Numbered from the stretch's first letter, positions 13,006 through 63,391 are shown. The stretch is DNA of 64,000 nucleotides from an uncultured Methanosarcinales archaeon (GCA_964428395.1 CAYRYB010000001.1:139971-203970), one strand, 5' to 3'. A program made the numbers and translations. The notes: generated from the sequence alone by a model not told the origin.

Positions 13006-15426
13006 TTGGCTTTCATGAAAAATGTACATCGCGAAGTTCTTAAAGCTGCCAAAAAAGAATTAGAAGAAACAGGCACGCTTACTAAAAATACACAAACTAA
13101 AGTTAAAAGTATTGCTCGTAAAGCATCTCCAAAAAACTGGCCCAAAGGAAACTCTCAAAAAAAACAAGCATATATTCTTCTTAGAAAGGCAAACAAGAAT
13201 GCGCTGAGAAGATGGTCATATACGTTTCATCGGCGATACGATTCTTGGTCTGAAAAAGAAAAAAACAAGCAAAAAAATGGACGTAAACAATCTGTTGAGC
13301 GTGGAAAAAATTACTTGGTAGGAAACGCTCTACGAGAAGCATTAACAATTTCTCATTCCGAGTCATTCCCGCAAGCCTTCAAAAAAGCATTATATGCACC
13401 ATTTGGCAAATATTCCTTTCTTGAAGATATTGTTGGTAATGAAACAGTTCAACTCATTAAGGGCGTGCAAAGAAACGATGAAGTTTCAATAAGCAGACTT
13501 GTTGAGAAAAAAACTCCTTATTTTGCAAAAAAACTTAGCAAAGATATTTCTTGGGAAGACAGAAAACAAATTGCTGCAAAAGCGATTTATACTGCAGCAA
13601 AAAAAGCATTGTTTGTCGGTGGATTTAATAAATATATCCTGTTTCATATAACTCGTGAACTAAGTAACTATTACGCAGATACACCTAAGAATGATTTAGT
13701 CCCCTTTAGTCATCGTTTAGAAACTGAAATTGCAGATGTTCATTCTATTCGCGCATTTGATGATGACACCTATGAAACGTTGCTTGAGCAGTCAGAGATT
13801 GCTAACAGAAATAGTTTCATTAATCTTGGTGATGGTGTTGTTCCTTACAAACTTCTCAAGCGGTTTAATAAACTTATTTCTGATGAGGGAAAATCAATGA
13901 AGCTGTTTATGAAAGCGTTTAAAGAAGAACTTCTTTCATACCAAAAAAGCAAAAAAGATTTTGTTGCAAGTGCTCAACAGAAAATCATTTCTTTATTTCA
14001 TCAAGATGCATTACAAAAAGGCAAACAGATTACAAGAGAAGTCGTTGAAAACACATTACAAAATGTTATCAAGAAATATAATAATGAGCACTTGTACGCT
14101 GATGAAGAACCTAGAGAAGAATTTTATGCGCTCTTTTTAAAAGAGCGAAAAAGAATTATTACTAAAGAAGTAAAGCGATTACTCAGCGAGCAAAAAAAAG
14201 CGATTCAAATTAAAGAACAGTATCATAACGTTAAATATCTACATTTGCTTGCTCGAACACTCACTGATGTGGAAGAAGTTATTTCTTACTCTAACCTTTT
14301 AGCTACAGAAGAAGAGAGAATTAGCGAAATAAAAAGCGAAGCTGTTGATACAGCTAAATATGTTTCTGGCTTTGAAGCAATGCCTTGGGAATTTAAGAAA
14401 GCTGCTGTTCTTGCAAAAATAAATAACACTCATTTTTGGGGACCGACTTTAGATCCATCTGCAATGAGAAACTATTGTTTACATGAGGAAGATTTAGAAT
14501 CATTAGCACAATTTGGCGATGTAAAAACTATTCTAGCAAGATTGTATCAAGAAGAAATAATTCTCTCAAGCTCTATTGGCAAAGGAGTGTTTAAAGCAGG
14601 GCAAAGAAATCCTAGTGAAGCGTTTAACGAATGGGGCGTTGTTGCATTTAATAATCATCCTTTATTACAAGAAGCGAGCGCTCCACTCTCGTCTAAATCT
14701 CATCAACTTGAAGAAATAATTATTACTAATGAATATACATGCGCGTTTTTAACTCCAATTATTTCTTCAAATCTCGATTCATGGAGTTATTCTTTTGAAG
14801 ATAGTGAAGAAAAGATAAAAAAAGCAAAAGAAAAATTAGAGCAGGCAAAAAAAGAAGCAATTACTGTTGTAAAAGAATACGAAAAAAATAATGTTCCTGT
14901 TCCACCATTAGTAAGAAATATTCAAGGCTACTTTGATGATGATTTAAAATACTCGCTTGAAATGAGATTAACAGATGATAACAAAGTAATTATTTCTCCT
15001 GAAGCATTCTATACGTTCAATAATAAGAACGGTTCATCTTGGGAAGTAGAAGAATATTTTGAAAATGAAAGAGAACGACTTGAGCAAAAGTACGCAAATG
15101 AAAAACAAAAAGAGTACGCGTTTACAGCAAAAATGCTTGAGCGGTTAAATAGGTTCTGGACAAGATTTTTAGATCCTGACGATCCAACACCAAAACAATT
15201 ACTTGCAAAATTTGATGATTGGGGAAGCAAGAAAGTAAGAGAAATAGGCGATTTCATTGAGGAAGCAAGAAAAGAGAGGGCCAAAAATTATGAAATAGAG
15301 CAACAAAAAATTCATCCTGAAGAAGAAATAGATAAAAGCGATTATCATGTAATCATTATTCCAAGAAAAGAAACTCAAGAAGCATTGTATTCGAATGAAG
15401 AATTTGATAAAGATTTACCTTTCTAA
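13006..15426 (+). CDS. large hypothetical K/E-rich protein (806 aa)
   Basis: Long ORF with strongly charged low-complexity segments. No recognised catalytic motifs. Confidence 0.5.
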   Translation: MAFMKNVHREVLKAAKKELEETGTLTKNTQTKVKSIARKASPKNWPKGNSQKKQAYILLRKANKNALRRWSYTFHRRYDSWSEKEKNKQKNGRKQSVERGKNYLVGNALREALTISHSESFPQAFKKALYAPFGKYSFLEDIVGNETVQLIKGVQRNDEVSISRLVEKKTPYFAKKLSKDISWEDRKQIAAKAIYTAAKKALFVGGFNKYILFHITRELSNYYADTPKNDLVPFSHRLETEIADVHSIRAFDDDTYETLLEQSEIANRNSFINLGDGVVPYKLLKRFNKLISDEGKSMKLFMKAFKEELLSYQKSKKDFVASAQQKIISLFHQDALQKGKQITREVVENTLQNVIKKYNNEHLYADEEPREEFYALFLKERKRIITKEVKRLLSEQKKAIQIKEQYHNVKYLHLLARTLTDVEEVISYSNLLATEEERISEIKSEAVDTAKYVSGFEAMPWEFKKAAVLAKINNTHFWGPTLDPSAMRNYCLHEEDLESLAQFGDVKTILARLYQEEIILSSSIGKGVFKAGQRNPSEAFNEWGVVAFNNHPLLQEASAPLSSKSHQLEEIIITNEYTCAFLTPIISSNLDSWSYSFEDSEEKIKKAKEKLEQAKKEAITVVKEYEKNNVPVPPLVRNIQGYFDDDLKYSLEMRLTDDNKVIISPEAFYTFNNKNGSSWEVEEYFENERERLEQKYANEKQKEYAFTAKMLERLNRFWTRFLDPDDPTPKQLLAKFDDWGSKKVREIGDFIEEARKERAKNYEIEQQKIHPEEEIDKSDYHVIIIPRKETQEALYSNEEFDKDLPF

Positions 15427-15715: not shown

Positions 15716-16879
15716 TTAAAATAATCCGTTCATTAGCAGTCCTAATACTGCTTTTGCTACAAAAAATATTGCAAGAGCCACTACTGCAAAAATGGGAAAT
15801 TGTTTTAATCCTTCTTTGCTGTTTCCTGTTCTTATGGTTGCTACAATTGCTGAGGCAAAATAGGAGGTTATGGTTAACAACACTATTGCAAATGTTGTAA
15901 AATCACTCATAGAAATACTATCTCCTGAAAAACTCATAGATAATCCTCCTGTTCCTGCTGAGCCCGTGCCTTGGAACGAGGAAGCAATATGTGTTATGAC
16001 TGAAAGGAGTTGTGAACTTAGAGCAAATAATGCTGGTGCTGCTGCAATGGATGCAATAGCTATAAAAATAACATACGTTGTAACGCTTGCGCTTATTTCT
16101 TTTTTCATAAGTCGTGTTGCTTGTATGTTTTCACTTATCTTTGTAAGTAATTCTGCTATCTCACCTCCACTTCTTAGTCCTGCTATAATAAGGTTTATGG
16201 CTTCTTTTAGAATTCGAGAATTATACCTTCGAGTAAAGTCAATGAGTGCATCTTCTAATTCACTTCCTGTAAATGTTGCTTTTGCTATCTCTTCCATTTC
16301 TGTTGCAAGAACACCAAAACGTGGCCGAACAGCGTACCATAATGCTCTGTCTATAGGCATTCCCGCACTAATATTTGCAGATGCTAATTGTAAAAAATCC
16401 GGTAGAACTTCTTCTATTTGTTTTGTTCGTTGATAAATTTTTATGTCAAAATAAATAAAAACAACTAAAAGAGAAATAAGATATAATCCTAAAAGCACTA
16501 TTGTCCAAAGTAATAAAAGAACAGTGAGCACATCAGAAAATACTGATCCTTTAGCTATTGAAAAGACAATAATGAAAAAAGAAAAAATTCCCATGATAAT
16601 AAGATCTGCAAAAAGAAGTTTCTTATTAAATTCCTTTGGTGATTCATCGTGTCCAGCACGTTCCAAAAATTCTCGAAGCAAAAGAGACATGCGTCGTCGT
16701 TTATACTTTTGTTTGGTATCAAACTTACTATGTACTTTTGAGCCTGTTTGTCTAAATGCTTCTTGAAGGGTTGATGGTTTTCCTTTTTTTTTCTTATGAA
16801 AAGAAGATGTTTTTATTTTAGGAAGTTTCATCTTTGCAAAAACAGACTTCACTTTTCCTAAAAATTCTTTTAGAGTCAT
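15716..16879 (-). CDS. type IV pilus / archaellum-type membrane platform protein (TadC/FlaJ-like) with lysine-rich N-terminal tail
   Basis: 387 aa and polytopic membrane protein. Lies directly downstream of the FlaI/PilB-family ATPase and a second platform-like ORF. Paired cytoplasmic T2SSF-like segments. N-terminal ~90 aa are K-rich. Confidence 0.6.
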   Translation of the reverse strand: MTLKEFLGKVKSVFAKMKLPKIKTSSFHKKKKGKPSTLQEAFRQTGSKVHSKFDTKQKYKRRRMSLLLREFLERAGHDESPKEFNKKLLFADLIIMGIFSFFIIVFSIAKGSVFSDVLTVLLLLWTIVLLGLYLISLLVVFIYFDIKIYQRTKQIEEVLPDFLQLASANISAGMPIDRALWYAVRPRFGVLATEMEEIAKATFTGSELEDALIDFTRRYNSRILKEAINLIIAGLRSGGEIAELLTKISENIQATRLMKKEISASVTTYVIFIAIASIAAAPALFALSSQLLSVITHIASSFQGTGSAGTGGLSMSFSGDSISMSDFTTFAIVLLTITSYFASAIVATIRTGNSKEGLKQFPIFAVVALAIFFVAKAVLGLLMNGLF

Positions 16880-16880: not shown

Positions 16881-17681
16881 TTATTGCATGCTAATTGGTG
16901 GCCGTGATGATTTAATCATTGAAAGAAACATAAGTTGTACAAATCCTATGAATCCTGCTAGTGCAAGGAGAACACCTAAGCTTAAGGTTAGGCCTATAAA
17001 CGTTGCTAAAACAACAAGCATGGTTGTTCCTAAGGACGGTACGATTACCGCTATCATCATGTAAAACATTGCCAAAGGATTAAGTTTCTTACCATACTCT
17101 TTTACCGAGATTTCTTGTTCTTTGACAATTTGATTAATAACAGAGTTTAATGCTGGCGCAACATCTGAGCCGGTTTTCAATGAGTTAAGAAGTTGCCAGA
17201 GTATTCGTTGTAATGTTGGAGATGGTGAGTTAATAAGTACCTCATTTATTGCATCTTCAATGCTTGTTCCTAAATAAACCTTATTCACTATATCTCCAAA
17301 AAAAGATCCTACAACAGCATAATTTTGCTCAATACTTTCAAATGCTTTATGGATAGGAACTCCTGAGTGTAATTCAATAATTAAGAAACGTCCAGCGAAA
17401 ACTATTTCTTCGTCTATTTTTCTTCGTAGTTGTTCAATTTTTACATCTACATATTTAAGCATGTACAAAAAAGCAAGTGGGGTAATCATTGCTGTAAGAA
17501 GTAAAAGAATATAGATTTTTGGAAAGAATGCAAAAATAACAAAACTAAATGCCGCTGAAAGCATAAACGCTGTCATGAAAATTTTTTTTACGTAAAACTC
17601 TGCGCTTTCGTTAATGGATGCCTGTCGAAGCCTTGCTTCTAAACCAGGGATTTTTTTTGCTAATCGTTTGTAAATTTTCAT
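16881..17681 (-). CDS. type IV pilus membrane platform protein (TadB/FlaJ N-half-like)
   Basis: 266 aa with multiple TM helices. Start/stop abuts 15716..16879. Its position in the pilus operon matches the split TadB/TadC arrangement. Confidence 0.55.
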   Translation of the reverse strand: MKIYKRLAKKIPGLEARLRQASINESAEFYVKKIFMTAFMLSAAFSFVIFAFFPKIYILLLLTAMITPLAFLYMLKYVDVKIEQLRRKIDEEIVFAGRFLIIELHSGVPIHKAFESIEQNYAVVGSFFGDIVNKVYLGTSIEDAINEVLINSPSPTLQRILWQLLNSLKTGSDVAPALNSVINQIVKEQEISVKEYGKKLNPLAMFYMMIAVIVPSLGTTMLVVLATFIGLTLSLGVLLALAGFIGFVQLMFLSMIKSSRPPISMQ

Positions 17682-17692: not shown

Positions 17693-19687
17693 TTATTGAC
17701 GTAAAAATTCTTTATTTGCATTGACAAATTTCATCAGGTTTTCTTTATCAGTATAATATTCTGCCATTATTCGACCAACATCATCAACAGTGTCAATATT
17801 ATGCTTGAGAAGATAATTTAAGATTTTTACTTTTTCTGCTAAGTTATTTCTAACTTCTTTTGTGGTCATTCCAGTAAATGTTTTTATGGTTTCAAAAAAG
17901 TGAGATGTTTTACTCTTATCTCGCATATATCCTTCAGTAACTGTTCCTAGTGAACTAACAAGTTTATCTTTTCGAGGATCATACTGCATAATAATATTTG
18001 ATTCGCCATTAGGAAGAATTTCTGCAATTTGAAAGGTTCGTCGTTTTCCTGTTCTTCTATTTCTAAATTGCACGATGATAAGAGAAATTGCTGAAAGCAT
18101 TATTTTTGGGACATCTAACGGAGGATTTGTAAGTCTATCTACTGCTTCTTTTGCATTATTTGCATGAAACGTTGCATACACAGAGTGTCCTGTATGAATT
18201 GCTTCAAAAAGCGTTTCTGTTTCTCGTTTTCGTCGTACTTCTCCAACAATTATTCTATCCGGTCGCATACGTAGTGAGTTAACAAGCAAATCTCCCATGC
18301 TTATTTCTCCTCGTCCTTCAGCATTCGGTAAGACAGTATTTAGAGGTACCCAATGAAGAAATTTTGGCAGACGTATCTCACGAGTATCTTCTATGCTAAT
18401 AACTCGTTGATTTGGAGGGAAAAAACTTGCAAAAACATTAAGTGCAGATGTTTTACCAGACGCAGTTCCTCCAGCAATTATTGCACTCATTTCATATTGT
18501 ATTGCAGACCAAATAAGTGCTGCTGCTTCTGAATTTATTGTGCCACTTCGTAAAAATTTAGTAATAGTCCATGGGTCTCGACTAAATTTACGAATAGTAA
18601 TAGTGTTTCCTGCAGTGCTTACAGGACTTAAGGTTGCATTGACTCTGTCTCCTGCATCTAAGTGAGCATCTAGTAATGGTGTTAAAACTGTTATTTGTCT
18701 TCCCACTTTTCTTCCTATGATACTTGCGTAATGTCTTATCTGGTTTTCATCTTTAAGATACGTTGTTGTTTTCAACCAACCATGTGTTTTATGATATACC
18801 CATACGGGCTCTGATGCTTGATTGATAACGATTTCTTCAAGGTTTTGATCGTCCATAATGAGTTCTAAATTTCCCAAACCAAGACTTTTTATCTTAAGAT
18901 AAGATGTAAGAAAATGTGTTGTTTCCATATCGCTGTCTGGCAGATATTTTTCAATAAGAATTTTGATGAGTTCTTCAAATTTATCTTCCACTTGAGTTGT
19001 TTTTTTTGTATCACTAATATCTGCAATACCCAAGCTAACTTTTTTAATGAGTTCTTGTCTTATTTTTTCTAAGATAAGTTTTGTTGTTGGTGTTATTGAA
19101 GATATTTCAAGGTCATAAATAGGAACATACTCTCGTTTGTCTTTTTTTATAACAACATAAATAGGAATTTGTCCAGACATGTATTGATATTCATCTATTC
19201 GATGTGCTATTTGTTCCGGACGATGAGGCATGTTTGCACTTCCTCCTTTCAAAGCTTCGTTTGTAGGTTTTTCTGCTTGTTTTAAAATCGTCGATTTGCT
19301 ATCTAACTTTTCTAATTTCGTTTCAATGGGTTTAGACGTGTCCTGCGATGAAGTTTCCTGCAAAGATGCATGTTTTGTTTTGTTTGATAGAAAATTTCCT
19401 AAAAAACCTTTCTTTTTTCGTTCTTCTAATGATTTTTCTGTTGAAAATTTTTCTGTTGAAAGTGATGTAAATGCATCGGCTTCTGCTTTAGTGTATGTGG
19501 GCGTCGTCCTTGTCACAGGAGAAGATAAAGAAGTAAAAGATGATGATTTCTTTTTTGTTGATGATCTTACAGGCTTTCTTGGTACTTTTTTTAATACTTT
19601 TGATTTTTTTGGTGCTTTAGTTGACCTTTTAAAAACGCTTTTGTTAGTTGTTGATTTTTTTGTTTTCTTTTTCTTAGTAGTTGCCAA
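17693..19687 (-). CDS. type IV pilus/archaellum assembly ATPase (FlaI/ArlI-PilB-VirB11 family) with ~150-aa K/S/T-rich N-terminal extension
   Basis: Walker A AGGTASGKTSALN. Asp/His boxes (ISIEDTREI, ..GEVR). The C-terminal half is conserved as in FlaI/TadA. The N-terminus MATTKKKKTKKSTTNKS... is low-complexity. Confidence 0.9.
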   Translation of the reverse strand: MATTKKKKTKKSTTNKSVFKRSTKAPKKSKVLKKVPRKPVRSSTKKKSSSFTSLSSPVTRTTPTYTKAEADAFTSLSTEKFSTEKSLEERKKKGFLGNFLSNKTKHASLQETSSQDTSKPIETKLEKLDSKSTILKQAEKPTNEALKGGSANMPHRPEQIAHRIDEYQYMSGQIPIYVVIKKDKREYVPIYDLEISSITPTTKLILEKIRQELIKKVSLGIADISDTKKTTQVEDKFEELIKILIEKYLPDSDMETTHFLTSYLKIKSLGLGNLELIMDDQNLEEIVINQASEPVWVYHKTHGWLKTTTYLKDENQIRHYASIIGRKVGRQITVLTPLLDAHLDAGDRVNATLSPVSTAGNTITIRKFSRDPWTITKFLRSGTINSEAAALIWSAIQYEMSAIIAGGTASGKTSALNVFASFFPPNQRVISIEDTREIRLPKFLHWVPLNTVLPNAEGRGEISMGDLLVNSLRMRPDRIIVGEVRRKRETETLFEAIHTGHSVYATFHANNAKEAVDRLTNPPLDVPKIMLSAISLIIVQFRNRRTGKRRTFQIAEILPNGESNIIMQYDPRKDKLVSSLGTVTEGYMRDKSKTSHFFETIKTFTGMTTKEVRNNLAEKVKILNYLLKHNIDTVDDVGRIMAEYYTDKENLMKFVNANKEFLRQ

Positions 19688-19718
19688 TATACGTCACCCT
19701 CTTTTTACTAAAAAAACT

Positions 19719-20870
19719 TTAATTTCCTCGAATAAAACTGATAAGAGTATTTATTTTTGATGAAAGTTTCTCTTTTCGTTTTTCATACACAGCTAGAGTT
19801 TTTTCTATATCTCCTAATTTATCAGCCACTGCCGGATGGTTGCTAAGAGCATTAAACACTTCTACTTTTTTCTTCAGCAATTCTAATTCTTGTATTAAAT
19901 TATCCTTCTCTGTTTCTATATTTGAGATTAAATCTCCCGTCTTGATTTTTTTAGCAAAAAGATTCTCAAAACCATCGTAGATTTTCTTTCCTAATTCAGC
20001 GTAATTTTGTACCTCTTGAACCTTTATTTTTGCACTTTTTAAGAGCGTGTCTTGTTGTAACTCAACTTCTTCTCGCTTTGAGCCCACTATCTTTGAAAGT
20101 TTTTTAATACTCTCTTTTTTGTTTTCCTTGATATTGCTAGTAATCGTAAGAATATCTTTTTTTATTTTTTTAATACGCTCTTCAGTTCCCGAGATGTTTT
20201 TGATTTGAGAAGTTAATTCCGTTGAAACAGTGCTCAATTTATTTAAGGATTCTTTTATTGTTTTTTCAGCTTCATCTTTACTAAAACGAAGCTTGGCTAC
20301 ATTCGCTTCAAACGTCTTGAGGCGATCCTCTTCTTTTTTTAGATCGTTTAATGATTGTTGGTATGCCTTATCAAAATTTTCTAATTGACTATCATATTCT
20401 TGAATGAATTGCTTGTAGACTCGTTGTTGTTCTTCTATTTCTTTATCGATATTTTTTTTAAGCTCGTCAAAATGTTCAAGTTCTTTCATTTGTTTTCGAA
20501 CAGTTTCTAGTTCATCCTTGATATGCCCTTGAATATTCACAAACTCTTTTCGGACTTCTTCAAAGCCACTCGTTTCACTATCTATTGCATTAATAGTTGC
20601 ATCAATTTTTCGTTTAAAGGCATCTTTTTGAGAATGAGCTTCTTTTGCCGAGATTTTCACGGTGTCCTCATCAATCTTACGTTCCTCAACGTACATTTTA
20701 GAAAACTTATAAGAAAGAGAGACTACTTTTTCCTTTTCTAAAAGTTCTATCCAGTCTTCAACTACATCCTTTGCAACACCAAGCGTTTTTGCTGCTTGTT
20801 CAGAAGTTAGTTTCTTACGATCGTGAATGAGTTGAACAAGCCGGTCAATACCTGTAGTTATATTCTTCAT
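19719..20870 (-). CDS. wHTH + long coiled-coil protein (pilus-operon accessory; fused counterpart of 1437..1892 + 286..1434)
   Basis: The N-terminal wHTH is similar to ORF 1437..1892. About 300 aa of heptad-rich coiled coil follow. It sits first after the pilin genes and before the ATPase. Confidence 0.55.
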   Translation of the reverse strand: MKNITTGIDRLVQLIHDRKKLTSEQAAKTLGVAKDVVEDWIELLEKEKVVSLSYKFSKMYVEERKIDEDTVKISAKEAHSQKDAFKRKIDATINAIDSETSGFEEVRKEFVNIQGHIKDELETVRKQMKELEHFDELKKNIDKEIEEQQRVYKQFIQEYDSQLENFDKAYQQSLNDLKKEEDRLKTFEANVAKLRFSKDEAEKTIKESLNKLSTVSTELTSQIKNISGTEERIKKIKKDILTITSNIKENKKESIKKLSKIVGSKREEVELQQDTLLKSAKIKVQEVQNYAELGKKIYDGFENLFAKKIKTGDLISNIETEKDNLIQELELLKKKVEVFNALSNHPAVADKLGDIEKTLAVYEKRKEKLSSKINTLISFIRGN

Positions 20871-20939: not shown

Positions 20940-21959
20940 TTATGGACAAGCACTTGCATTAGAATAAGATAATCCATCCACTTCGTAGGTGGTTGCTTCG
21001 TTTTGCGGAATAACAAAATAAAGAGATGCAGGCAAACCAGTAACATTACAAAGTTTTACACCTCCTAAATCATTAAAGTAAATAAAATCCACTTTAATCC
21101 TGTTTTCATAGACATCTTTGTCCTGCGCAGCAATATCTCCTATATTTACTATGCTTTGTATACCATAAGGGCTTGGAGTATTATTATTTTCAAAATGTTG
21201 TAAAAAGGAGGGCGCATTTGTTGAAGCAATATAATACGATTTGTTTGCGAGAAGTTGTAAATTGGTTGTATCATTATCGCTTGTATTTACTAAAAAGAGA
21301 AAGGGCGCTTCTCGTACCGTATTTGGAACAGTATTTTCTGTAAATTTACTATACAATGGATCTCGTAAATCAAAAATAGGTACTTGAGTAGTATACGTTT
21401 TTTCAAAATGCCATGATGCAACATGTTTAGTGTCGGAAATATTAACTTTTGTATGAACGGCAACTGTTATCTTCCACGGATCTTCTTGTGAAAGCGTAAT
21501 ATTAAGAACAGTAATATTTGCTCGTAAACCAATTTGACTTGCTAAGAAATTAACACGAGCAAGATAATCTGAAAAACTTGACGCGTTCATTAAAGTTACA
21601 TTAGTTTGGTTAATAGTGCCATTAAAGAATGCTTCCTCAAATGCAGTCGCTGTATTGTTAAAAAACCCTGCAGAGGTTGATGCGATATAATCTTCTAAAG
21701 AAAGCAACGCTCGAAAGGATGAGATATATGTTGCTCGATGTACATCTTGATTAAAGTCGGTTACAAAATCATTCATGAGCTTTACGCGACTTTCGTAAAT
21801 GTCTTGTTTGTCTTGAAAGGTATATCTGTTCGTTGAAAGGAAAACAAATATGATAATAGTTGCAAGGATTGTTGCGGTTACCAAATAGGTGAATCCTTTT
21901 TTGTTAAATTGTTTCATTGTCATGTCCATACTGTTGTACTTACCGTTGTTGGTCCCCAT
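20940..21959 (-). CDS. pilin-like N-glycosylated protein (class III signal peptide; true start probably at internal MTMKQFNKKG|F)
   Basis: KKG|FTYLVTATILATIIIFVFL is a prepilin-like motif. Many N-x-S/T sequons. Ends in Cys. Confidence 0.55.
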   Translation of the reverse strand: MGTNNGKYNSMDMTMKQFNKKGFTYLVTATILATIIIFVFLSTNRYTFQDKQDIYESRVKLMNDFVTDFNQDVHRATYISSFRALLSLEDYIASTSAGFFNNTATAFEEAFFNGTINQTNVTLMNASSFSDYLARVNFLASQIGLRANITVLNITLSQEDPWKITVAVHTKVNISDTKHVASWHFEKTYTTQVPIFDLRDPLYSKFTENTVPNTVREAPFLFLVNTSDNDTTNLQLLANKSYYIASTNAPSFLQHFENNNTPSPYGIQSIVNIGDIAAQDKDVYENRIKVDFIYFNDLGGVKLCNVTGLPASLYFVIPQNEATTYEVDGLSYSNASACP

Positions 21960-24649
21960 AAATAAGGTACGCCATTTATCAATGTTATCGTGATTTCTAA
22001 ATCTGCTTCTGTTAAATCCACGATGACCTTGCCATTTTTATCAGGGTCTAATTGTTCAAGCAAGTGGTACGTTGCAGAGTCATAGGCATCATCGCTATTA
22101 TAAACAATACTCGTGTTTGTATAGTTACATTGTTTGCTTCCAGAATAACTTGTTGGGATAAGTAAATGTGAGAAAAGCTCTGATTCTGATTGTATGGTCC
22201 AATTACAACCATCATGATACGTAAAAGTTTGACTTCGTGGTGTTGATGAATTAATTAATGCAGTGTAAATAAGTGTGTTATTGGGTGAACAAATTGAATT
22301 GTTAAGTGGCGAGTCCCCTACCTTCATAACAATTGTATTATCTGTTCCAGGAACCAATGTCGTTGAAGGTATTTGTATAAGAAAAGGATCTCCTAGTAAA
22401 ACATAATCATTGCCATAATCACTTAAATTAAAAACAACCACATTATTAACGGTTACTAACTTTGTCCAATGCTTAGAAGAAAATGATGTAACATAAGCAT
22501 TAGTTATTTCTATTCCCTCAGGCAGAGGAATAGTTGCGCTGCAACCACCAAATTGAGCAGACTCAAATGTTAAGGATATTTTTCCTTGTTTATCTACTTG
22601 TGTTAATGGTTCATAGTATAAATCAATGTATGAATTATTATACAGGTGCGCTAGGGAGTAATTACCAACAATATTAAGTGTTTGCGAAGAATAATTTGCT
22701 ACAACGAGTATTTGTTCAGAAATATTCTTGTATATTTGTGCAAGCTGTGAAACATTGGTTGCATTATAGTAAAGCGAGGAATTACAAGCAATTTGTTGCA
22801 TGACTGATTGTCCTGAAGCAGTCATTCCTTCACTAAATCCTATTGCATAAACAGTAATGTTATCTGCGCATGCTTGCTGCGCTGCAGCTATTGCATCGTT
22901 TTGTGATTGCGTTCCATCATTGCCAACAGAAGAATATGTGTGTAAATCACCTCCACAATGTCGCGTTGGTTCACCATCACTTAAAACAACCATAAATTTT
23001 TTGTTCGTTGAACTATTTATCGAATCTCTAGCCCTATTAATTCCACAACAGGTGCATGTTCCGCCTCCTGCAGAATAAGTGTCAATCTCTGAATCTAAAA
23101 CTCCTTTTACATTGGTTAATGCTGTTTGAGGATTTGCGTTTGTTGAAAAATCTACAAGACCAATTTTGTGAAGAAGCGAGTCATTAAGAATAGTTTCTAC
23201 AAAAAGATGATCTGCTTCTTTTGCAATGTCTAAGAGTGTTTTATTACAGGTTGTAGTTGTTTTGTTATAGATAACATGATTTTTTGTTGTTGAAGTTCCG
23301 CCACATTCATTAGAAACGCAAGTTGTTGTATAAGGGCATTCTGTTGAAAACCACCATACCCACCACTTATATTCATATTTGCAGTATTCCACATCATGCG
23401 TGTAATATTCTCCACAATCATTCATACTTCCTGAAACGTCCGTTACGAGAAATGAATCTGATGGTTTGCCTGCGTTAACAACAGTAATGTTTGAAAGATT
23501 GGTCGTTCCTAAGCGCAATGGTATTTCTGTTGGTGGAAGAGTTTGATTTATTCTTGAATAAAGAATATTTTGCGTGATATTTTGTCCTGGAGAAATAAAA
23601 ATAGTTTCATTAGCTAAAGTTACAAACGTATCATATTCATTATACAACGTCAAATTCATAGTCCAATTGCGTATTAGTCCTTGCGCGCCAAAGGCATCAT
23701 ACATGTTTAAGAATCCATCAATTTGTGGGAAGAAATATCTTCTGTAACCAGGTGTTACAGGATCATTTACTGTGTCCGTTGTATACACCACTTTAAGAAA
23801 TCCTCCTGAAATATACGATTCATTTAAATCGCTAGTAAACGCTAAAGTAATATTATTTTTTCCTGCTTGAAAAGAAGTATTGCAAGATATAATGTTCCAT
23901 AAATTTATTTGTCCTACTTGTCCCGTTCTTGGTCCTCCACAAGGATTTTCATTAATATAGAATTGAAATGTTCCTGGTGTTTCTATTTTAAGGTCTGTTG
24001 ATAAAAGTCGTGAAGTAGAAAAATCAGCTGGTAGCGTTAAAGATACCGTGATATTTCCCTGTCCGTAAAATCCTCCAAAATAAGCATAGGCATTTGTTTT
24101 TTTATTGCGTACTTTTTTAAGATAGGCCGAAGAACTTGAACCAGTAATAGGTGCACCTTTTGCAATTCCAGATATCATTCGTCTTGTTATAACCAAATTT
24201 TGTATTGGTGAATCATTTCGTTGAAAGATAGAATCGTTCTCAATTGAAAATTTAATATTCAAATTTGGTGGAAGTGAGGCATTGGTTATTATTTCAAAGA
24301 GTTCTTTTGCTTTGGCAGTTTTATTTAATGCCCAATATTCACCAATTTGTTCTAAAACGGTATTGTTGACATTTGTTATGTTGCCCGTTGTTATCTCACT
24401 AGTTACAAAAGAACTATTCATTTCATTGATTGTTATCGCTCCTAAAACATTAAGAAGATCTTGCGTGATAAACGATTTCTCATTTATTGATGGCTCATAA
24501 TAGGTAACAGAAAGTAATGTTGCTGCAACACCAACTAATAAAAGTCCTGCTAAAAGCGCGTCCATTGAGTAATAAATTCCTTTTTTCTTTATCATTTTAC
24601 TCCCATGAATAAACAATAAGCTGTAATAATGATGCGTTGTAGGCAACAA
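21920..24649 (-). CDS. large pilin-like adhesin with vWA domain (class III signal peptide; true start probably MIKKKG|I at about 24595)
   Basis: KKKG|IYYSMDALLAGLLLVGVAATLL is a prepilin motif. The MIDAS motif LVTDVSGSMND is present, with downstream vWA-like T and D positions. About 60 N-glycosylation sequons and Cys-rich segments. Confidence 0.7.
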   Translation of the reverse strand: MLPTTHHYYSLLFIHGSKMIKKKGIYYSMDALLAGLLLVGVAATLLSVTYYEPSINEKSFITQDLLNVLGAITINEMNSSFVTSEITTGNITNVNNTVLEQIGEYWALNKTAKAKELFEIITNASLPPNLNIKFSIENDSIFQRNDSPIQNLVITRRMISGIAKGAPITGSSSSAYLKKVRNKKTNAYAYFGGFYGQGNITVSLTLPADFSTSRLLSTDLKIETPGTFQFYINENPCGGPRTGQVGQINLWNIISCNTSFQAGKNNITLAFTSDLNESYISGGFLKVVYTTDTVNDPVTPGYRRYFFPQIDGFLNMYDAFGAQGLIRNWTMNLTLYNEYDTFVTLANETIFISPGQNITQNILYSRINQTLPPTEIPLRLGTTNLSNITVVNAGKPSDSFLVTDVSGSMNDCGEYYTHDVEYCKYEYKWWVWWFSTECPYTTTCVSNECGGTSTTKNHVIYNKTTTTCNKTLLDIAKEADHLFVETILNDSLLHKIGLVDFSTNANPQTALTNVKGVLDSEIDTYSAGGGTCTCCGINRARDSINSSTNKKFMVVLSDGEPTRHCGGDLHTYSSVGNDGTQSQNDAIAAAQQACADNITVYAIGFSEGMTASGQSVMQQIACNSSLYYNATNVSQLAQIYKNISEQILVVANYSSQTLNIVGNYSLAHLYNNSYIDLYYEPLTQVDKQGKISLTFESAQFGGCSATIPLPEGIEITNAYVTSFSSKHWTKLVTVNNVVVFNLSDYGNDYVLLGDPFLIQIPSTTLVPGTDNTIVMKVGDSPLNNSICSPNNTLIYTALINSSTPRSQTFTYHDGCNWTIQSESELFSHLLIPTSYSGSKQCNYTNTSIVYNSDDAYDSATYHLLEQLDPDKNGKVIVDLTEADLEITITLINGVPYLWGPTTVSTTVWT

Positions 24650-25097: not shown

Positions 25098-25118
25098 TTT
25101 TATTCTCTTTAGTAAGGT

Positions 25119-25514: not shown

Positions 25515-25516
25515 TT

Positions 25517-25957: not shown

Positions 25958-26043
25958 ATTTAAAGATGATGTCTTTATCGACTAGTTAAAACAAGAAAAA
26001 AAAGTGAATCCTAATGAGATGCAAGAGAAGAAGCAAAGAGAAA

Positions 26044-26072: not shown

Positions 26073-26076
26073 TTAT

Positions 26077-32992: not shown

Positions 32993-33046
32993 GTTAACAC
33001 TTTAGACGAACCTGGTTATAAACTTTTCGTTTATAAATGGGTATTA

Positions 33047-54044: not shown

Positions 54045-55976
54045 TTGGGTGCCATTGCAAAGGGAGGTGAGGTTGTGGCGGCTAAGAAAAAAAGAACAAC
54101 GCAAAGAAAATCAACTAGAAAAACGATCGCAAGAAAGTCGACTCCTGTTAAGAAGCATCCTAAGAGAAAGATTACGAGTAAAAAGAAATCTTTACCAGCG
54201 GTTAGAAGTAAGAAAAAAAAAGCAGGTAAAAGAGTTGTAAAGAAAACAACTTCTAAAAAGAAAACTACTAAAAAAGTAACAAAAAAAATAGCTAAAAAAA
54301 CAAGCGCAAAGAAAATAATAAAACCAAAGACAAAGAGTAAAAAAACAAAAAATAACAAAATAAAAAGAAAAAATACTGCTTATAAAATAAAATCTTCAAA
54401 AGAAGAAGAGCAAAACGTACAAGAAATAAAAGCAACGCTTGATGAGATTCGATCATTAGAACTGGACAATAAGCGATTGGAACATCAAATTTCTAAAGCG
54501 CAAACAAAACAAGAAATTCTTTCAGAATTAAAAACGTACCTTGCATTACTAAAACAAGCGCCAAGCCCGATGCCTGCATCAGAAGAACAGTTCAAAAAAG
54601 AAAATCCTCAGCTTACGCAGTTGCAACAAACGCTCAATCAAAATAACGAACAACTTGCATCAGAAGTTCAAAAAGCGCAAACAAAAGACAAACTCATTAC
54701 GCGACTAAAAAATCTTCTTGCAATAAAAAGTAAAACAAATGAAACAACACAAAAAGTTTCTTTATCGCCACAAGAAAAAGAGGATAATGCTTCGCCACCT
54801 TTAGCGCAATTACCAAAACCACCAGCGCTTTCTTTACAAGAAACAAAAGCTGACAAAGAAGAAATGGTCAAGGTAGCTGTTGAAGAATCAGAGCCAGACC
54901 ATATAAGTGAAATTAATACTTTTCAAATAAATCAGATAAAACAAGAAAAAAAACCAATACTTAAGGAAAGCGATTTTAAAACAAACAAAACAAGAGGCAT
55001 TATAACGCCACAAGAAGCACAGGAGTTTTCCATTCTTTTAAAAAATGCAACCAAAGAAATTAATAAAGTATTCCTAGGTCAAGAACGCGCAGTAGAGCGA
55101 GTACTTATTTCTGTTGTTTGTGATGCGCACACGCTTTTAGAAGGTGTTCCTGGTCTTGCAAAAACACTGCTTATTGAAACTCTTGCAAAAATTATTAGTG
55201 GCACCACATTTAAGCGTATTCAGTTTTTGCCTGATTTATTACCATCAGATATTATTGGTGGCCAAGTCTTTAATCCAAAAACTGCAGAATATAAAATCTA
55301 CAAAGGCCCTATTTTTGCAAACTTTGTACTTTGCGATGAGATAAATCGTGCACCGCCAAAAACACATGCTGCAGTTATGGAAGCTATGCAAGAGAAAAAA
55401 ATAAATATTGAAAATGAAGAATTCATTTTAGATAGACCATTTTTTGTTTTAGCAACGCAAAACCCTTTGGAAAACAAAGGTACGTATGATTTACCAGAAG
55501 CAGTTTTAGATAGATTCATGTTTAAGGTTTTACTTGATTATCCAAGAAGAGAAATTGAACATGATATCATTACTGAAAACGCGACCACAAAAAATGTAAA
55601 GAGAAAAATAAGAAAAGTTATTGATAAAGAAACGTTGCTTGACATGCAGGTAAAAGTAAAAACCGTATTCATCGCAGAAAAAATAAAAAGTTACATTCTT
55701 GATTTAGTTGAAGCAACAAGAGGATTAAATAAAGATATTGAAGGATTTAAATTTGTTAAATATGGTGCGGGCGTTCGTGCAAGCATTTATCTTTCATTAG
55801 CTGCAAAGGCTAAAGCGATTATTGAAGGTCGTAATTATGTTCTTCCTGATGATGTTGATTTTATTGCGCCAGAAGTATTGCGTCATAGAATCGCCTTAAA
55901 CTATAGAGGCAAAGCACATAACATCACGCCAGATAAAATAGCAGAAGAAATTCTCTCTAAAGTAAAGGCAATTTAA
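54045..55976 (+). CDS. MoxR-family AAA+ ATPase with ~330-aa N-terminal extension (histone-H1-like lysine-rich tail + coiled coil); the track start is TTG, and the real start may be GTG 54075
   Basis: C-terminal half: Walker A GVPGLAKT, Walker B FVLCDEINRAPPKT, and LATQNPLE..GTYDLPEAVLDRF (MoxR signature). N-terminus: KKxxKK repeats (…KKTTSKKKTTKKVTKKIAKKTSAKKIIKPKTKSKKTKNNK…). Confidence 0.85.
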   Translation: MGAIAKGGEVVAAKKKRTTQRKSTRKTIARKSTPVKKHPKRKITSKKKSLPAVRSKKKKAGKRVVKKTTSKKKTTKKVTKKIAKKTSAKKIIKPKTKSKKTKNNKIKRKNTAYKIKSSKEEEQNVQEIKATLDEIRSLELDNKRLEHQISKAQTKQEILSELKTYLALLKQAPSPMPASEEQFKKENPQLTQLQQTLNQNNEQLASEVQKAQTKDKLITRLKNLLAIKSKTNETTQKVSLSPQEKEDNASPPLAQLPKPPALSLQETKADKEEMVKVAVEESEPDHISEINTFQINQIKQEKKPILKESDFKTNKTRGIITPQEAQEFSILLKNATKEINKVFLGQERAVERVLISVVCDAHTLLEGVPGLAKTLLIETLAKIISGTTFKRIQFLPDLLPSDIIGGQVFNPKTAEYKIYKGPIFANFVLCDEINRAPPKTHAAVMEAMQEKKINIENEEFILDRPFFVLATQNPLENKGTYDLPEAVLDRFMFKVLLDYPRREIEHDIITENATTKNVKRKIRKVIDKETLLDMQVKVKTVFIAEKIKSYILDLVEATRGLNKDIEGFKFVKYGAGVRASIYLSLAAKAKAIIEGRNYVLPDDVDFIAPEVLRHRIALNYRGKAHNITPDKIAEEILSKVKAI

Positions 55977-56002: not shown

Positions 56003-56905
56003 ATGGAAAAAAAAACTCCTGATATGCCCGTTATAAACATCTTTGATTTTGATGAACTCATCAAAAAAACAGGTGATACGGCCGGCAGCTTAATGGAATT
56101 TTTTCGTCTTAATCTTATTTATTACCAATTAATCTCTGGAAAAGGTTTGGAGTTTGATAGACTTCGAAGATACGTTCCTGGAGACGATGTAAAGCGTCTT
56201 GATTGGAAAGTATTTGCTCGCACAGGAGATTTATATACAAGAATCTATAAAGAAGAACGGGAGTTTAACATTGTCATCATATTAGACGTTTCTAATTCCA
56301 TGCTCGTTGGCACAGGTCAATACACAAAAAACGAGTTTGGTGCAGTTATTGCAGGAACAATTGCTGTTGCAGCAGTTGAAGCGGGCGATAATGTTGGCGG
56401 AGGAGTATTTTCCTCAGAAAAAAATAATTTTGTTGAAACAGAACAAGATTATATTCATCTCTTAAACACGTTATCAATAAAGGAAAACTATGGTGGAAAA
56501 AAGAATTGGGAAAAATTAACAAACGAGTTATTAGCAAATTATTCTAATGACGCAATCATTTTCATTATTTCAGATTTTATTGATAGTAAACCAGAAGAGT
56601 TCTTACCAGAACTTGCCAGTTCATTTACAAAAGTGTATGGTATCATGATTCGAGATCCAATTGATGAAACCCTACCAAAAGGTGTTGGAAAAATGTATGT
56701 AAAAGATCCAAATACTCAGCGCGTAGTGCTTACCGACTTAGATAAGATTCGTGATGAATACGAAGTATTAAGTAAAATGCAAGTTAAACGAGTTAAAGAT
56801 GCGTTTCAACAATATGGACAACTTTGTTTTAGAATTGTCACAGGAGATGATTTCGGAATTGAATTCGTAAAAGCCATGGGTGAAGAGGAGGTGGAAATAT
56901 ATTAA
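56003..56905 (+). CDS. DUF58-family (vWA-like) protein, MoxR partner
   Basis: RRYVPGDDVKRLDWKVFARTGDLYTRIYKEERE...IILDVSNSM matches the DUF58 signature and MIDAS-like DxSxS. Confidence 0.8.
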   Translation: MEKKTPDMPVINIFDFDELIKKTGDTAGSLMEFFRLNLIYYQLISGKGLEFDRLRRYVPGDDVKRLDWKVFARTGDLYTRIYKEEREFNIVIILDVSNSMLVGTGQYTKNEFGAVIAGTIAVAAVEAGDNVGGGVFSSEKNNFVETEQDYIHLLNTLSIKENYGGKKNWEKLTNELLANYSNDAIIFIISDFIDSKPEEFLPELASSFTKVYGIMIRDPIDETLPKGVGKMYVKDPNTQRVVLTDLDKIRDEYEVLSKMQVKRVKDAFQQYGQLCFRIVTGDDFGIEFVKAMGEEEVEIY

Positions 56906-56967
56906 GTTTTAATGTATTCTCATTAACAATTACTCTTCAAAATCCTCTGCGCGATTCCATTCTTTTA

Positions 56968-57876
56968 GTGTTCTTGCTCGCCGTTACGGTTATTGCATAT
57001 ATGTTTATGAAACAAATTAGAGGTAAGCGAGCGGCTTATTTTGGGAATGTTAAAACACTTGAGCGAACACATAATTTTAGAATTTTTAATGTAAGTTCCA
57101 CAATTTTAATTATAAAACTGGTAATGATAATTATTCTTTTCATGCTCGCAACAAATTCTATTGCAATAAAAAGTTATTTACCAACAACAAATACGGATTA
57201 TGTGCTTCTTATTGACGATTCTTCCAGCATGGCAAAAACTGATTTCTCACCAAATAGACTCGCTTCGGCTAAAGACATTTCTTTGGAGTGGCTTACTGCA
57301 ATTCCTAACACAACACAAATTGGGGTTGTAGGATTTTCATCAAGTACTGATTATGCAATACCTTTAACCAATAACAAAGAGCTCGTTCGTAACACCATCA
57401 ACAAGATAGAAATTGATTATAGTAGAAGCGGTACTGATTTAAATTACGCGATTAATTATGGTCTTGATTTATTGCGCAATACCTCTCAAAAGAGGACTAT
57501 TCTTTTGTTTACTGATGGTACGCAAGAAGTTGATAACATAACTATTCTTAAGGCTATTGATGAAAATGTAAAAATTGTCAGTTTTGGCATTGGCAGTATT
57601 AACAATTCAAAAGTGGATTTGGGAAATATTCCTGAAGAATTTCGCAACACATATAGTGATTTAGACCTTAATTTTACTATTCTAAAGGACCTTTCCAGAC
57701 ACACCAATGGACAAGCATACAGAGTTTCTAATCAGTTAGAATTGCAAAGAAGTTTTGAAGATGCAACCATTTCACAAGTAAAAAGAAGTATCAATACATC
57801 CTATTATGTAGTTCTTATCATTATCATCATGTCCATTCTTGAACTTTTAGTATACGCCAAAATCGGTGCCTTATAG
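56968..57876 (+). CDS. membrane-anchored vWA-domain protein (BatA/BatB-like)
   Basis: N-terminal TM helices. MIDAS LLIDDSSSM. vWA T/D positions. A C-terminal TM helix. Confidence 0.75.
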   Translation: MFLLAVTVIAYMFMKQIRGKRAAYFGNVKTLERTHNFRIFNVSSTILIIKLVMIIILFMLATNSIAIKSYLPTTNTDYVLLIDDSSSMAKTDFSPNRLASAKDISLEWLTAIPNTTQIGVVGFSSSTDYAIPLTNNKELVRNTINKIEIDYSRSGTDLNYAINYGLDLLRNTSQKRTILLFTDGTQEVDNITILKAIDENVKIVSFGIGSINNSKVDLGNIPEEFRNTYSDLDLNFTILKDLSRHTNGQAYRVSNQLELQRSFEDATISQVKRSINTSYYVVLIIIIMSILELLVYAKIGAL

Positions 57877-63390: not shown

Positions 63391-63391
63391 G

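Follow-up and report, generated by a model that had tools for sequence, protein, structure and literature searches.

Three proteins encoded in the window, a 64,000-nucleotide stretch of archaeal DNA analysed here at its full length, begin with lysine-rich N-terminal tails: a pilus ATPase, a TadC-like platform protein, and a MoxR ATPase. All three lie at or very near the positions that a preliminary description of the sequence had given them. We show here that these tails exist, that they are translated, and that they are intrinsically disordered and polycationic. The source of the window is a member of the Woesearchaeota, a DPANN group of tiny symbiotic archaea, and the tails are typical of one type IV pilus clade of the Woesearchaeota, where they are a property of the machine: the ATPase and TadC-like tails are found in the same clade of loci, and both are missing from its sister clade. 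What is conserved in them is charge, and comparison of the homologous sequences points to selection for a net positive charge and a shortage of hydrophobic residues, not for a particular sequence.

The ATPase gene (17693-19687, minus strand) encodes 664 amino acids, with a Pfam T2SSE domain (PF00437) at aa 351-540 that scored 109.1 bits (cut-off, 24.9); PilB3_C was also matched. Its conserved PilB/GspE/FlaI-family core (17693..19207, minus strand) consists of an N-terminal beta element, a three-helix bundle, the NTD, the P-loop CTD, and a PilB3_C-like end. Across 24 homologues, the Walker A motif GGTASGKTS (G406-G407-T-A-S-G-K412-T-S), the Asp box (E433/D434), Walker B (D477...E483), and the His box (H498/H501/H508) were invariant. 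Its structural relatives in the PDB were 2OAP (5.9e-66), FlaI, and CpaF, and its closest characterised archaeal relative is ArlI/FlaI (4II7, 4IHQ). An identity as the archaellum motor FlaI was nevertheless ruled out, since the protein scored 247.9 bits against the NCBIfam FlaI/ArlI equivalog (NF058587), below the cut-off of 550, and the locus is that of a pilus, not an archaellum. Judged by its sequence, the window ATPase is a pilus-type paralogue of FlaI, despite the JGI labels on its homologues.

Two T2SSF genes, identified with Pfam, lie directly 3' of the ATPase gene, and both products are polytopic membrane proteins that score above the PF00482 cut-off of 25.2. The TadB-like protein (16881..17681, minus strand; 53.6 bits) covers positions 21-226 of the NCBIfam UpsF model and forms the N-terminal half of a split platform. 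It lacks a long tail, and only 1 of 86 TadB-like homologues had an N50 net charge of at least +10. The ATG of the TadC-like gene (15716-16879, minus strand) falls 1 nucleotide past the stop codon of the T2SSF gene that precedes it. The core of this protein (15716..16609, minus strand; 50 bits) has two transmembrane helices, a cytoplasmic T2SSF domain, and C-terminal transmembrane helices, and it covers UpsF model positions 269-479, matching the C-terminal half of a PilC/UpsF-type platform that here is split. The locus also encodes a 909-aa VWA pilin-like protein, and ORFs at 20940-26595 have N termini that, judged by eye, resemble class III signals (KRAQ...EF). Directly upstream of the ATPase gene is a gene for a protein with a wHTH domain and a long coiled coil (19719..20870, minus strand), which gave weak HTH_29 and SMC-like coiled-coil matches. 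This protein accompanies the tailed machine: 46 of the 61 loci of the tailed clade encode one of at least 300 aa. Distant homologues have the wHTH fused to the ATPase. All of the wHTH matches fell below the Pfam thresholds, and Pfam searches with the wHTH, DUF5752-like, and small three-helix modules returned only subthreshold or uninformative matches. No literature on DUF5752 was found.

The ATPase tail comprises aa 1-160 (19208..19687, minus strand) and is made up of a polybasic head (aa 1-50), a middle part rich in S and T, and a stretch of mixed K/E/S/T composition containing KKKGFLGNFLSNK. AlphaFold assigned residues 1-159 a pLDDT of 32-41 and no secondary structure, and both the predicted fold and the conserved region begin at around aa 162; the nearest solved structures, 2OAP and 4II7, start at about query residue 140. 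The basic cytoplasmic tail of the TadC-like protein (aa 1-90; 16610..16879, minus strand) ends in a conserved helix, L..FLERAG, immediately before the first transmembrane helix, and counting from the translation gave the ~90 aa ahead of this helix a net charge of about +18. Of the ~55 long ORFs that the window contains, those of the ATPase and MoxR had the most K+R in their first 50 residues (21 and 19, respectively), followed by the TadC-like protein (14) and the ORF at 13006-15426 (12), with all others at 11 or fewer. The polymerase-like and helicase-like DNA/RNA-handling enzymes of the window lack such tails.

The MoxR ATPase had been placed at 54045-55976. Its tail was indeed present, but the start was not where it had been called: the sequence suggests that the TTG at 54045 is 10 codons too early and that translation probably begins at a GTG at 54075, which is preceded by the full Shine-Dalgarno (SD) sequence GGGAGGTGA at 54062-54070. 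The same SD and GTG are found in the closest homologue. Counted from 54045, the first 110 aa contain 49 K+R and a single D+E. Numbered from the GTG, aa 1-107 (54075..54395, plus strand) form a disordered polybasic tail with a pLDDT of 34-39, and a K/R/S/T tail is conserved in the 14 closest orthologues. The coiled coil proposed to follow the tail was borne out by AlphaFold, which predicted long helices at 108-161 and 170-221 with a pLDDT of 73-90. This helical hairpin (aa 108-221) and a second disordered stretch (222-307) together span 54396..54995 on the plus strand, and the helices are well conserved relative to the homologous locus L082, in contrast to the tail. The AAA+ core (54996..55976, plus strand) scored 186.4 bits for AAA_3 (cut-off, 27) and 58.2 bits for AAA_lid_2 (cut-off, 22.7), with invariant Walker A (GVPGLAKT) and Walker B (DEINR) motifs. 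The operon partners at 56003..57876 on the plus strand, a DUF58 protein (56003-56905) and a membrane-anchored VWA protein (56968-57876), have no basic tails. The order MoxR-DUF58-VWA is syntenic in L083 and L084, and MoxR lay beside the pilus locus in just 1 of 80 loci from relatives. MoxR of this membrane system has gained the same kind of tail separately.

Since tails of this kind could arise if upstream starts had been mis-called, we weighed the evidence that they are translated. The artefact reading holds that the real starts lie downstream, at the ATG at 19231 of the ATPase or inside MoxR, and that an A-rich leader is free of stops by chance. In its favour, stops are scarcer in A-rich, T-poor DNA, the ATPase tail is also open in one antisense frame, and the longest-ORF start of MoxR was indeed wrong by 10 codons. 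However, each of the three tails had no stops in its own frame, compared to 6 to 15 in the other sense frames (9 and 8 for the ATPase, 6 and 15 for MoxR), and none of 500 composition-matched shuffles was stop-free (mean, 7 to 11 stops). The codon-position composition of the tails, with its periodicity, was like that of the cores. AAG accounted for 28% of Lys codons in the tails versus 11% in the cores (P = 0.0035), an excess consistent with translated DNA avoiding long runs of A.

The sites of initiation argue in the same direction. Reading from the sequence, the Shine-Dalgarno AGGGTGA (19694..19700, minus strand) lies 6 nucleotides 5' of the TTG start of the ATPase at 19687; the stop of the upstream gene is at 19719, so that only 31 nucleotides separate it from the start of the tail. 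The homologous locus L081 has an identical SD and TTG start, and the SDs and start codons that open the tails are kept in L081 and L082. The internal ATG (19229-19231, minus strand) is a candidate alternative start with GGAGGA (19241-19246) 9 nucleotides 5' of it, a good SD-like string that would favour a downstream start. The internal Met is missing at the matching position in three homologues (P0002, P0003, and P0004), however, and we judge this GGAGGA to be a chance SD-like string within coding sequence. A minor, tail-less ATPase isoform initiating at this ATG is possible. Finally, the tail is in frame in more than 100 homologues, and all 8 indels that distinguish the ATPase tail from that of L081 are multiples of three. 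The artefact reading is thus largely refuted, and we regard it as highly improbable; for the ATPase and the TadC-like protein we reject a mis-called start, which is upheld solely as the 10-codon correction to MoxR.

The comparison with archaeal orthologues supported the proposal that the tails are a recurrent, lineage-specific device, as a tail is the rule in the Woesearchaeota ATPase clade and its start carries a conserved SD. ATPase tails were found in 108 of 120 homologues (median, 51 aa; 25% K; net charge, +0.20 per residue), with the longest Woesearchaeota tails reaching 285 aa. Within the clade defined by a core identity of at least 56%, 52 of 61 ATPases had an extension of at least 20 aa, and 47 of 53 TadC-like tails had a net charge of at least +8; in the sister clade, the corresponding counts were 2 of 19 and 0 of 17. 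The TadC-like tails of orthologous loci measured 40-270 aa with charges of +8 to +42, versus ~45 aa and +1 to +6 in the sister clade (Mann-Whitney U test [MWU], P = 5e-8). Individual loci depart from this pattern: L046 has its basic tail at the C terminus of the ATPase instead of the N terminus, in several loci a basic tail sits on the wHTH/coiled-coil protein (at its C terminus in some), and the ATPase of L001 is genuinely tail-less, yet its core is 77% identical. An all-against-all clustering of neighbours revealed no partner gene exclusive to the tail-less clade that would replace the tail.

The preliminary description had called the tails hypervariable, and this is accurate: relative to the nearest homologue (L081), the ATPase tail is 41% identical and the core 89%. 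Tail sequence and length drift rapidly among homologues, and the tails grow and shrink via short in-frame duplications and deletions. These properties favour the reading that the tails have no specific partner and are tolerated low-complexity expansions at permissive termini, acting at most as entropic bristles that provide generic solubility or spacing, or as unstructured lysine-rich initiation sites for regulated turnover. Slippage signatures are consistent with this idea, namely, an exact 15-nucleotide duplication at 19432-19461 in the ATPase tail and a degenerate 12- to 15-nucleotide periodicity in the DNA of the MoxR tail, as are the loss of the tail in L001 and the absence of a correlation between ATPase and TadC tail charge within the tailed clade (rho = 0.11). 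In contrast, neutral drift in AT-rich genomes would be expected to yield tails rich in N, I, F, and Y. Relative to the cores, the ATPase tails were enriched 3.45-fold in K and 2.2-fold in S, with N at 1.07-fold and F/Y/W at 0- to 0.24-fold; I, L, F, and Y were depleted 2.5- to 8-fold, and A and P were only weakly enriched (1.3- and 1.1-fold). Moreover, basic tails are kept from 24% to 63% GC by a shift from K to R in GC-rich relatives, they sit on particular subunits of one machine, they are missing from ~98% of neighbouring ORFs as well as from the sister clade, and in a locus with an acidic proteome (L018) they are acidic. On balance, we consider a reading with no specific partner unlikely.

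Two further explanations did not survive these comparisons. A general small-genome or AT-bias effect, or lysine tails across the proteome, was rejected given that Asn was unenriched, that R replaces K in GC-rich relatives, and that comparable basicity was seen in just 16 of 837 unrelated ORFs nearby in these loci, most of them encoding ribosomal proteins. Charge compensation, suggested earlier and considered here as compensation of an acidic core, was rejected because core net charge is equal in the two clades (median, +4 in the tailed clade versus +3 in the tail-less clade; P = 0.2).

The tails probably have a charge-dependent function of some kind, and nucleic-acid tethering and membrane tethering, both raised in the preliminary description, remain the two live mechanisms. 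If such a function is granted, we would give membrane lipid somewhat less than an even chance of being the partner and nucleic acid a rather smaller one, with the remainder falling to other partners or to none in particular. Our preferred reading, which we hold tentatively, is that the tails tether their proteins electrostatically to a polyanion at the inner membrane face, with anionic lipid slightly favoured; both the partner and the benefit we infer. The tails would bind the polyanionic surface non-specifically, with a preference for anionic lipid headgroups. With six tails per ATPase hexamer in addition to those of the platform, avidity would retain the motor at its site on the membrane and raise its concentration there. 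The tails would thereby supplement the known membrane-localising N terminus of the family in small cells with few accessory docking proteins.

Several observations are consistent with a lipid partner. All of the tailed proteins work at the inner membrane face. A hydrophobic+KKK window, mostly at the extreme C terminus, was present in 21 of the 39 homologues with C-terminal extensions, compared to 5.5±2 in shuffles, and more distant ATPase homologues have amphipathic N termini of the MGL(L/F)DK.KK type. The tails of the window ATPase and of its nearest relative contain KKKGFLGNFL and KKKSFLSKVL, respectively, and the FtsY of one relative has the same kind of N terminus. ArlI/FlaI, a soluble protein, associates with the membrane, is stimulated by lipid, and is localised via its N-terminal region, in which membrane localisation depends on a three-helix bundle and rotation on the first 29 residues (PMC8978795). 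Purely electrostatic binding of lysines to a membrane has an archaeal precedent in the lysine patch of NmPin (PMC4922055), and a basic, disordered cytoplasmic region of the integral membrane protein FtsQ of M. tuberculosis binds acidic lipids (PMC10036325).

Other observations weigh against it. Amphipathic or hydrophobic windows were not enriched in the N-terminal tails (6 observed, 8.7 expected), and such aromatic-poor tails are more typical of nucleic-acid-binding proteins than of classical bacterial membrane-targeting sequences. The ATPase tail contains a single amphipathic membrane-targeting candidate, KKKGFLGNFLSNK at aa ~91-103, which is kept only in P0002 and is non-helical in the AlphaFold model; the motif KKKGFLGNFL is conserved solely in the nearest homologue and is not predicted to be helical. 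A tail is also found on a single-pass surface protein of L083 and L084. Since that protein and the TadC-like protein are already embedded in the membrane, a tether would be needless for them. At least one close relative (L001) can dispense with the tail, and the uncorrelated charges of the ATPase and TadC tails count against lipid as well, as do the findings on CpaF and the AT-hook-like and HhH elements described below.

Known membrane-targeting segments, such as the A-domain of FtsY, those of MinD/FtsA, the Arg/Ala helix of M. tuberculosis FtsQ, and NmPin, use positive charge, which the tails also have, to keep cytoplasmic or juxtamembrane proteins on acidic lipids, and some ATPase homologues have ends resembling membrane-targeting sequences. 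Classical membrane-targeting sequences are short amphipathic helices, whereas the N-terminal tails are long, poor in hydrophobic residues, and unenriched in windows of this type. An FtsY-like membrane-targeting motif as a general feature of the N-terminal tails was unsupported, being found only in the nearest homologue and without enrichment.

Nucleic acid is a close rival to lipid because relatives of the window proteins carry AT-hook-like repeats and an HhH domain. Here the tails would bind DNA or RNA in the manner of histone H1-like or AT-hook-like tails and so tether the pilus motor, the platform, and MoxR, a reading that we consider possible but doubtful. One variant is that a pilus machine partnered with the wHTH protein handles DNA, in uptake or in anchoring to the nucleoid; another is that the machines are kept near the nucleoid of a very small cell. 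The composition of the tails (K/S/T/A/P, almost free of aromatics, +0.20 net charge per residue) suits such a role, although polycations all bind DNA in vitro, so that composition by itself does not discriminate. In GC-richer relatives, the tails contain KRGPGRP[PR]KK or canonical KRGRGRPPKK repeats, which are found in the ATPases P0092 and P0093 and in MoxR P0135 (2 copies) and P0138 (4 copies). When we scored the AT-hook motif by regular expression against shuffles, GRP occurred 9 times in MoxR N-terminal regions versus 3.0±1.7, with 6 of the 9 in P0135 and P0138. Pfam also detected HHH_5 above threshold in the N-terminal regions of two MoxR orthologues, P0167 and P0177. The adjacency of the wHTH gene to the ATPase gene and the fusion of the two in distant homologues point the same way, as do a similar short K-tail on the MetRS of a relative and the presence of tails on integral membrane proteins that need no tether.

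Against nucleic acid, the AT-hook-like motifs are confined to a few relatives, and the three window tails contain neither a GRP core nor regular (S/T)PKK or PAKKA-type repeats, the periodicity of their DNA being degenerate. The tails do resemble histone H1-like tails and AT-hooks in being disordered, K-rich, aromatic-poor, and selected on charge over sequence. They differ in lacking a regular repeat unit, in their weak enrichment of A and P, and in their carriers, which are a secretion ATPase, a membrane platform, and a MoxR chaperone-type ATPase rather than chromatin proteins. The wHTH matches are subthreshold, and wHTH domains often mediate protein-protein contacts. The polymerase-like and helicase-like proteins of the window, which handle DNA and RNA, are without such tails. 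Nucleic acid is not known to take part in the mechanism of any PilB/FlaI/CpaF or MoxR protein.

A more specific proposal joins the tailed ATPase, the tailed half-platform, and the wHTH/coiled-coil protein in a version of the archaeal type IV pilus machine that handles DNA. A brush of polycationic tails on its cytoplasmic face, AT-hook-like in some lineages, would take or hold DNA at the pilus base. A symbiont unable to make nucleotides could use it to take up DNA or to scavenge nucleotides, and the MoxR-VWA system would share targeting modules with the pilus because it services the same structure. We regard this proposal as improbable.

Comparison with characterised systems qualifies how unusual the tails are. 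The preliminary description held that they are not part of these families elsewhere, which is true of the solved structure 2OAP and of FlaI, neither of which has a tail; unlike the window ATPase, FlaI lacks a long disordered polybasic extension. The claim is overstated with respect to CpaF, the Tad ATPase of Caulobacter crescentus, which belongs to the same superfamily (E value, about 2e-46). Its NTD0 is predicted to be disordered over aa 1-79, ahead of a three-helix motif; it is invisible in cryo-EM, and its function was left unassigned by the authors (PMC11300603). Pilus extension remains wild type when NTD0 is truncated (PMC11300603), a dispensability that counts against a lipid tether and favours tails with no specific partner. 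The Woesearchaeota tails, for their part, are strongly polybasic, can be several times as long, and have a counterpart on the platform protein. We found no literature on lysine-rich tails of DPANN or Woesearchaeota pilus or MoxR ATPases.

To our knowledge, DPANN archaea cannot yet be handled genetically, and type IV pili are their main candidates for host attachment and for capture of DNA and nutrients. The preferred reading, an electrostatic tether at the inner membrane face, points to a docking principle that is undescribed for this machine family. Taken together, these results reveal clade-wide, charge-selected disordered tails on the motor and platform of a pilus that move between subunits and termini, and they provide a clean natural case of a disordered region selected on composition, not sequence, over a range of 24 to 63% GC. 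If the tails bind DNA, they would constitute a direct, new link between a cytoplasmic pilus motor and nucleic-acid handling.

Basic tails were present on all three proteins for which the preliminary description had proposed them, as judged by translation composition, conservation, and AlphaFold models. In the pilus ATPase (17693-19687, minus strand; 664 amino acids [aa]), a secretion ATPase of the PilB/GspE/FlaI/TadA family (Pfam T2SSE, 109 bits) with a PilB3_C-like end whose profile score did not reach the FlaI equivalog cutoff, residues 1 to 160 lie upstream of where conservation and the AlphaFold fold start, and this tail has a pLDDT of 32 to 41 and lacks secondary structure. The TadC-like protein (15716-16879, minus strand) carries ~90 basic residues ahead of TM1, and the MoxR model places 107 polybasic disordered residues before a confident helical hairpin (residues 108 to 221), which another disordered stretch links to the AAA+ core. 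The ATPase and MoxR have the most basic N termini among the ~55 ORFs of the window. All three are ordinary members of their own families; the two T2SSF genes of the type IV pilus locus that also encodes the ATPase match the N- and C-terminal halves of a split PilC/UpsF platform, and MoxR is the first gene of a MoxR-DUF58-VWA operon that is syntenic in relatives.

The tails are read as protein. Each contains no in-frame stop, compared with 6 to 15 stops in the alternative sense frames, and every one of 500 composition-matched shuffles contained at least one stop. Codon-position composition mirrors that of the cores. The ATPase starts at TTG 19687, with the Shine-Dalgarno (SD) sequence AGGGTGA 6 nt upstream and the preceding stop 31 nt away, and both SD and TTG are identical in the nearest homologous locus, L081. 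The scenario of a miscalled start, with translation from an internal ATG at 19231 preceded by an SD-like GGAGGA, fails, as this Met is absent from the homologues P0002 to P0004. Relative to L081, the ATPase is 41% identical in the tail and 89% in the core, and all eight indels in the tail DNA are multiples of three. For MoxR, the longest ORF begins at TTG 54045, but the likely start is GTG 54075, 10 codons downstream, which follows a perfect SD (GGGAGGTGA, 54062-54070); SD and GTG are both conserved in the closest homologue, L082. A TATA-like TTTATAAA lies upstream at 54012-54019. The database MoxR protein (643 aa) is probably 10 residues too long. AAG accounts for 28% of Lys codons in the tails versus 11% in the cores (P = 0.0035), as expected if a translated sequence avoids long A-runs, and an exact 15-nt duplication together with a degenerate 12- to 15-nt periodicity points to tail growth by slippage.

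Among the 120 best ATPase homologues (core identity, 62 to 80%), 108 carry an N-terminal extension of at least 20 aa (median, 51 aa; maximum, 224 aa). These extensions cannot be aligned yet are uniform in composition, with 25.5% Lys (3.45-fold over the core), 13.3% Ser (2.2-fold), and a median net charge per residue of +0.20. Asn is not enriched (1.07-fold), while Ile/Leu (0.4-fold) and Phe/Tyr/Trp (0- to 0.24-fold) are depleted, which argues against AT-driven drift. In GC-rich relatives (P0092, P0096, and P0108), the tails are rich in Arg, Ala, Pro, and Gly and still basic, and the tail at L029 (63% GC) has 10 Lys and 13 Arg. Tail charge, rather than sequence, is selected. A separate C-terminal disordered extension (25 to 200 aa; rich in Ser, Thr, Lys, and Glu) occurs in 39 of the 120 homologues (P0022 to P0100), and the window protein is without it; it opens with SQL(Q/K)LE.P and often closes with a hydrophobic-plus-KKK motif (e.g., QGSIFGLFKKKK or LISLIFRRKK) or a PELPPTP motif.

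The tails belong to a machine and not to the proteome. Across 80 related genome loci (1.26 Mb, 1,128 ORFs), a strict filter for basic N-terminal tails returned almost nothing other than ATPases, TadC-like proteins, and a handful of ribosomal proteins, and only 16 of 837 unrelated ORFs, including an FtsY and a MetRS, had a net charge of at least +10 in the first 50 aa. When loci were divided by ATPase core identity to the query, the clade with at least 56% identity had an ATPase tail in 52/61, a TadC-like pre-TM1 tail of at least +8 in 47/53 (maximum, +42 and 270 aa), and a ~383-aa winged helix-turn-helix (wHTH)/coiled-coil gene in 46/61 loci. In contrast, ATPases of the 51 to 55% clade begin 0 to 7 aa before the core (exceptions, 2/19), and their TadC-like N termini are ~45 aa long, have a charge of +1 to +6, and share a conserved FLEEFGKAFVPK motif. 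The basic tail is not fixed in position: in an Aenigmatarchaeota-labelled locus it is attached to the ATPase C terminus (+19), and in several loci to the C terminus of the wHTH/coiled-coil protein.

Charge compensation of an acidic core, one function suggested in the preliminary description, was not borne out, since the two clades show no difference in ATPase core charge. At L018 (~10001-11440), a Woesearchaeota-type locus labelled "Methanosarcinales" and the sole one in the set with a halophile-type acidic proteome (ATPase core, -42), the ATPase and TadC-like tails are both acidic, as an electrostatic function subject to screening at high salt would predict. The tail can also be lost, as the ATPase of L001 (core 77% identical) is genuinely tail-less. 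Such loss in close relatives and the fast turnover of the tails would fit tails without a specific partner, as would the dispensability of NTD0 in CpaF (PMC11300603).

All 14 of the closest MoxR orthologues (core 71 to 90% identical) carry a 60- to 110-aa K/R/S/T tail followed by conserved helices. Relatives interleaved with them have a DUF5752-like module (..F.F.DG....L.EL......F..HVN..KNDF..WI..), a small helical module (W...A...GY....I...L...GY), or an HhH domain instead, and a few distant relatives are K-rich again. These two modules, whose carriers include P0136 and P0148 (MoxR N terminus) and P0203, recur on pilus ATPases, the DUF5752-like one at the C terminus of P0116 (locus L006) and the small helical one at the N terminus of another (L071, 9848-11524), which suggests a common pool of terminal, targeting modules. 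Tailed ATPase and tailed MoxR occur in one assembly in the window (P0001/P0121) and probably in two others (P0006/P0125 and P0016/P0128), the members of each pair having contigs of equal length (214253, 96057, and 1065401, respectively). A link between vWA/MoxR-type systems and archaeal type IV pili has been described previously (PMC4858521), and the pilin-like genes of the window locus (20940-26595) include a 909-aa protein (21920-24649, minus strand) with a hydrophobic pilin-like N terminus and a VWA domain. This protein, a candidate pilus-associated adhesin, might connect the locus to the MoxR operon 30 kb away.

That operon is flanked by very large secreted proteins (1,433, 846, and 601 aa; 49234-53535 and 59034-63943, both minus strand) that are Lys-poor, extremely rich in N-x-S/T sequons, and syntenic in L083 and L084. 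Within the same block, a surface-protein orthologue (L083, 5931-7814; L084, 5297-7132; both minus strand) has a TM helix and then a 45- to 75-aa K-rich cytoplasmic tail (KKSSKKVAKKASKK...); the window copy (45600-47372, minus strand) ends RKKNAN directly after the TM helix. Divergent from the TadC-like gene is an 806-aa ORF (13006-15426, plus strand; TTG start) whose first 100 aa are moderately basic (12 K+R in the first 50). Window GC is ~33%, falling to 29% with strongly negative GC skew at 28220-34632. A gene for a C-5 cytosine DNA methylase lies there (31685-32992), along with one for an 839-aa protein that has two HATPase_c-type domains (29173-31692) and further ORFs, and the stretch looks like an acquired restriction-modification or defense island. 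The best homologues and the 80 loci all come from Woesearchaeota/Nanobdellota (DPANN) metagenome-assembled genomes; many, including L006, L011, L015, and L018, are titled "uncultured Methanosarcinales archaeon" despite clearly Woesearchaeota-type pilus genes, probably a taxonomic mislabel.

Directly upstream of the ATPase, as in 46 of the 61 loci of the tailed clade, lies the wHTH/coiled-coil protein (19719-20870, minus strand), with a ~300-aa coiled coil and only subthreshold family matches (TrmB, MarR, and HTH_29). In distant ATPase homologues (P0251, P0260, P0298, P0306, P0317, and others), one to three wHTH copies are fused directly to the N terminus, a Rosetta-stone link between the two proteins. 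A second gene of this type (286-1434) adjoins a small wHTH gene (1437-1892). Many distant ATPases (P0243, P0247, P0253, P0255 to P0257, and others) are 1,000 to 1,600 aa long, and their alignment splits just past the P-loop (query core ~253-275), consistent with intein insertions; the window contains none. Nucleic-acid binding by the tails, as raised in the preliminary description, would accord with this wHTH partner, with the AT-hook-like repeats that GC-richer relatives carry in the tails of both ATPase and MoxR, with the HhH domain of two MoxR orthologues, with the paucity of aromatic residues, and with the occurrence of such tails on integral membrane proteins as well.

The tails constitute a charge-dependent, position-tolerant disordered module on proteins that each operate at the membrane's inner face. 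There, they would bind anionic lipid, a reading that we place slightly above nucleic-acid binding. ArlI/FlaI is membrane associated, lipid stimulated, and localized via its N-terminal region (PMC8978795), and electrostatic membrane binding has precedents (PMC4922055 and PMC10036325). Membrane-targeting-sequence (MTS)-like ends occur in 21 of the 39 homologues with C-terminal extensions versus 5.5 ± 2 in shuffles, some homologues have amphipathic MGLxDKxKK N termini, and the window ATPase tail contains an MTS-like KKKGFLGNFL.

The disordered N terminus of CpaF is already known, and polybasic tails are well known in chromatin and membrane-binding proteins. The literature searched held no report of an archaeal pilus motor and its platform that both carry polybasic tails throughout a clade and share them with a MoxR ATPase.
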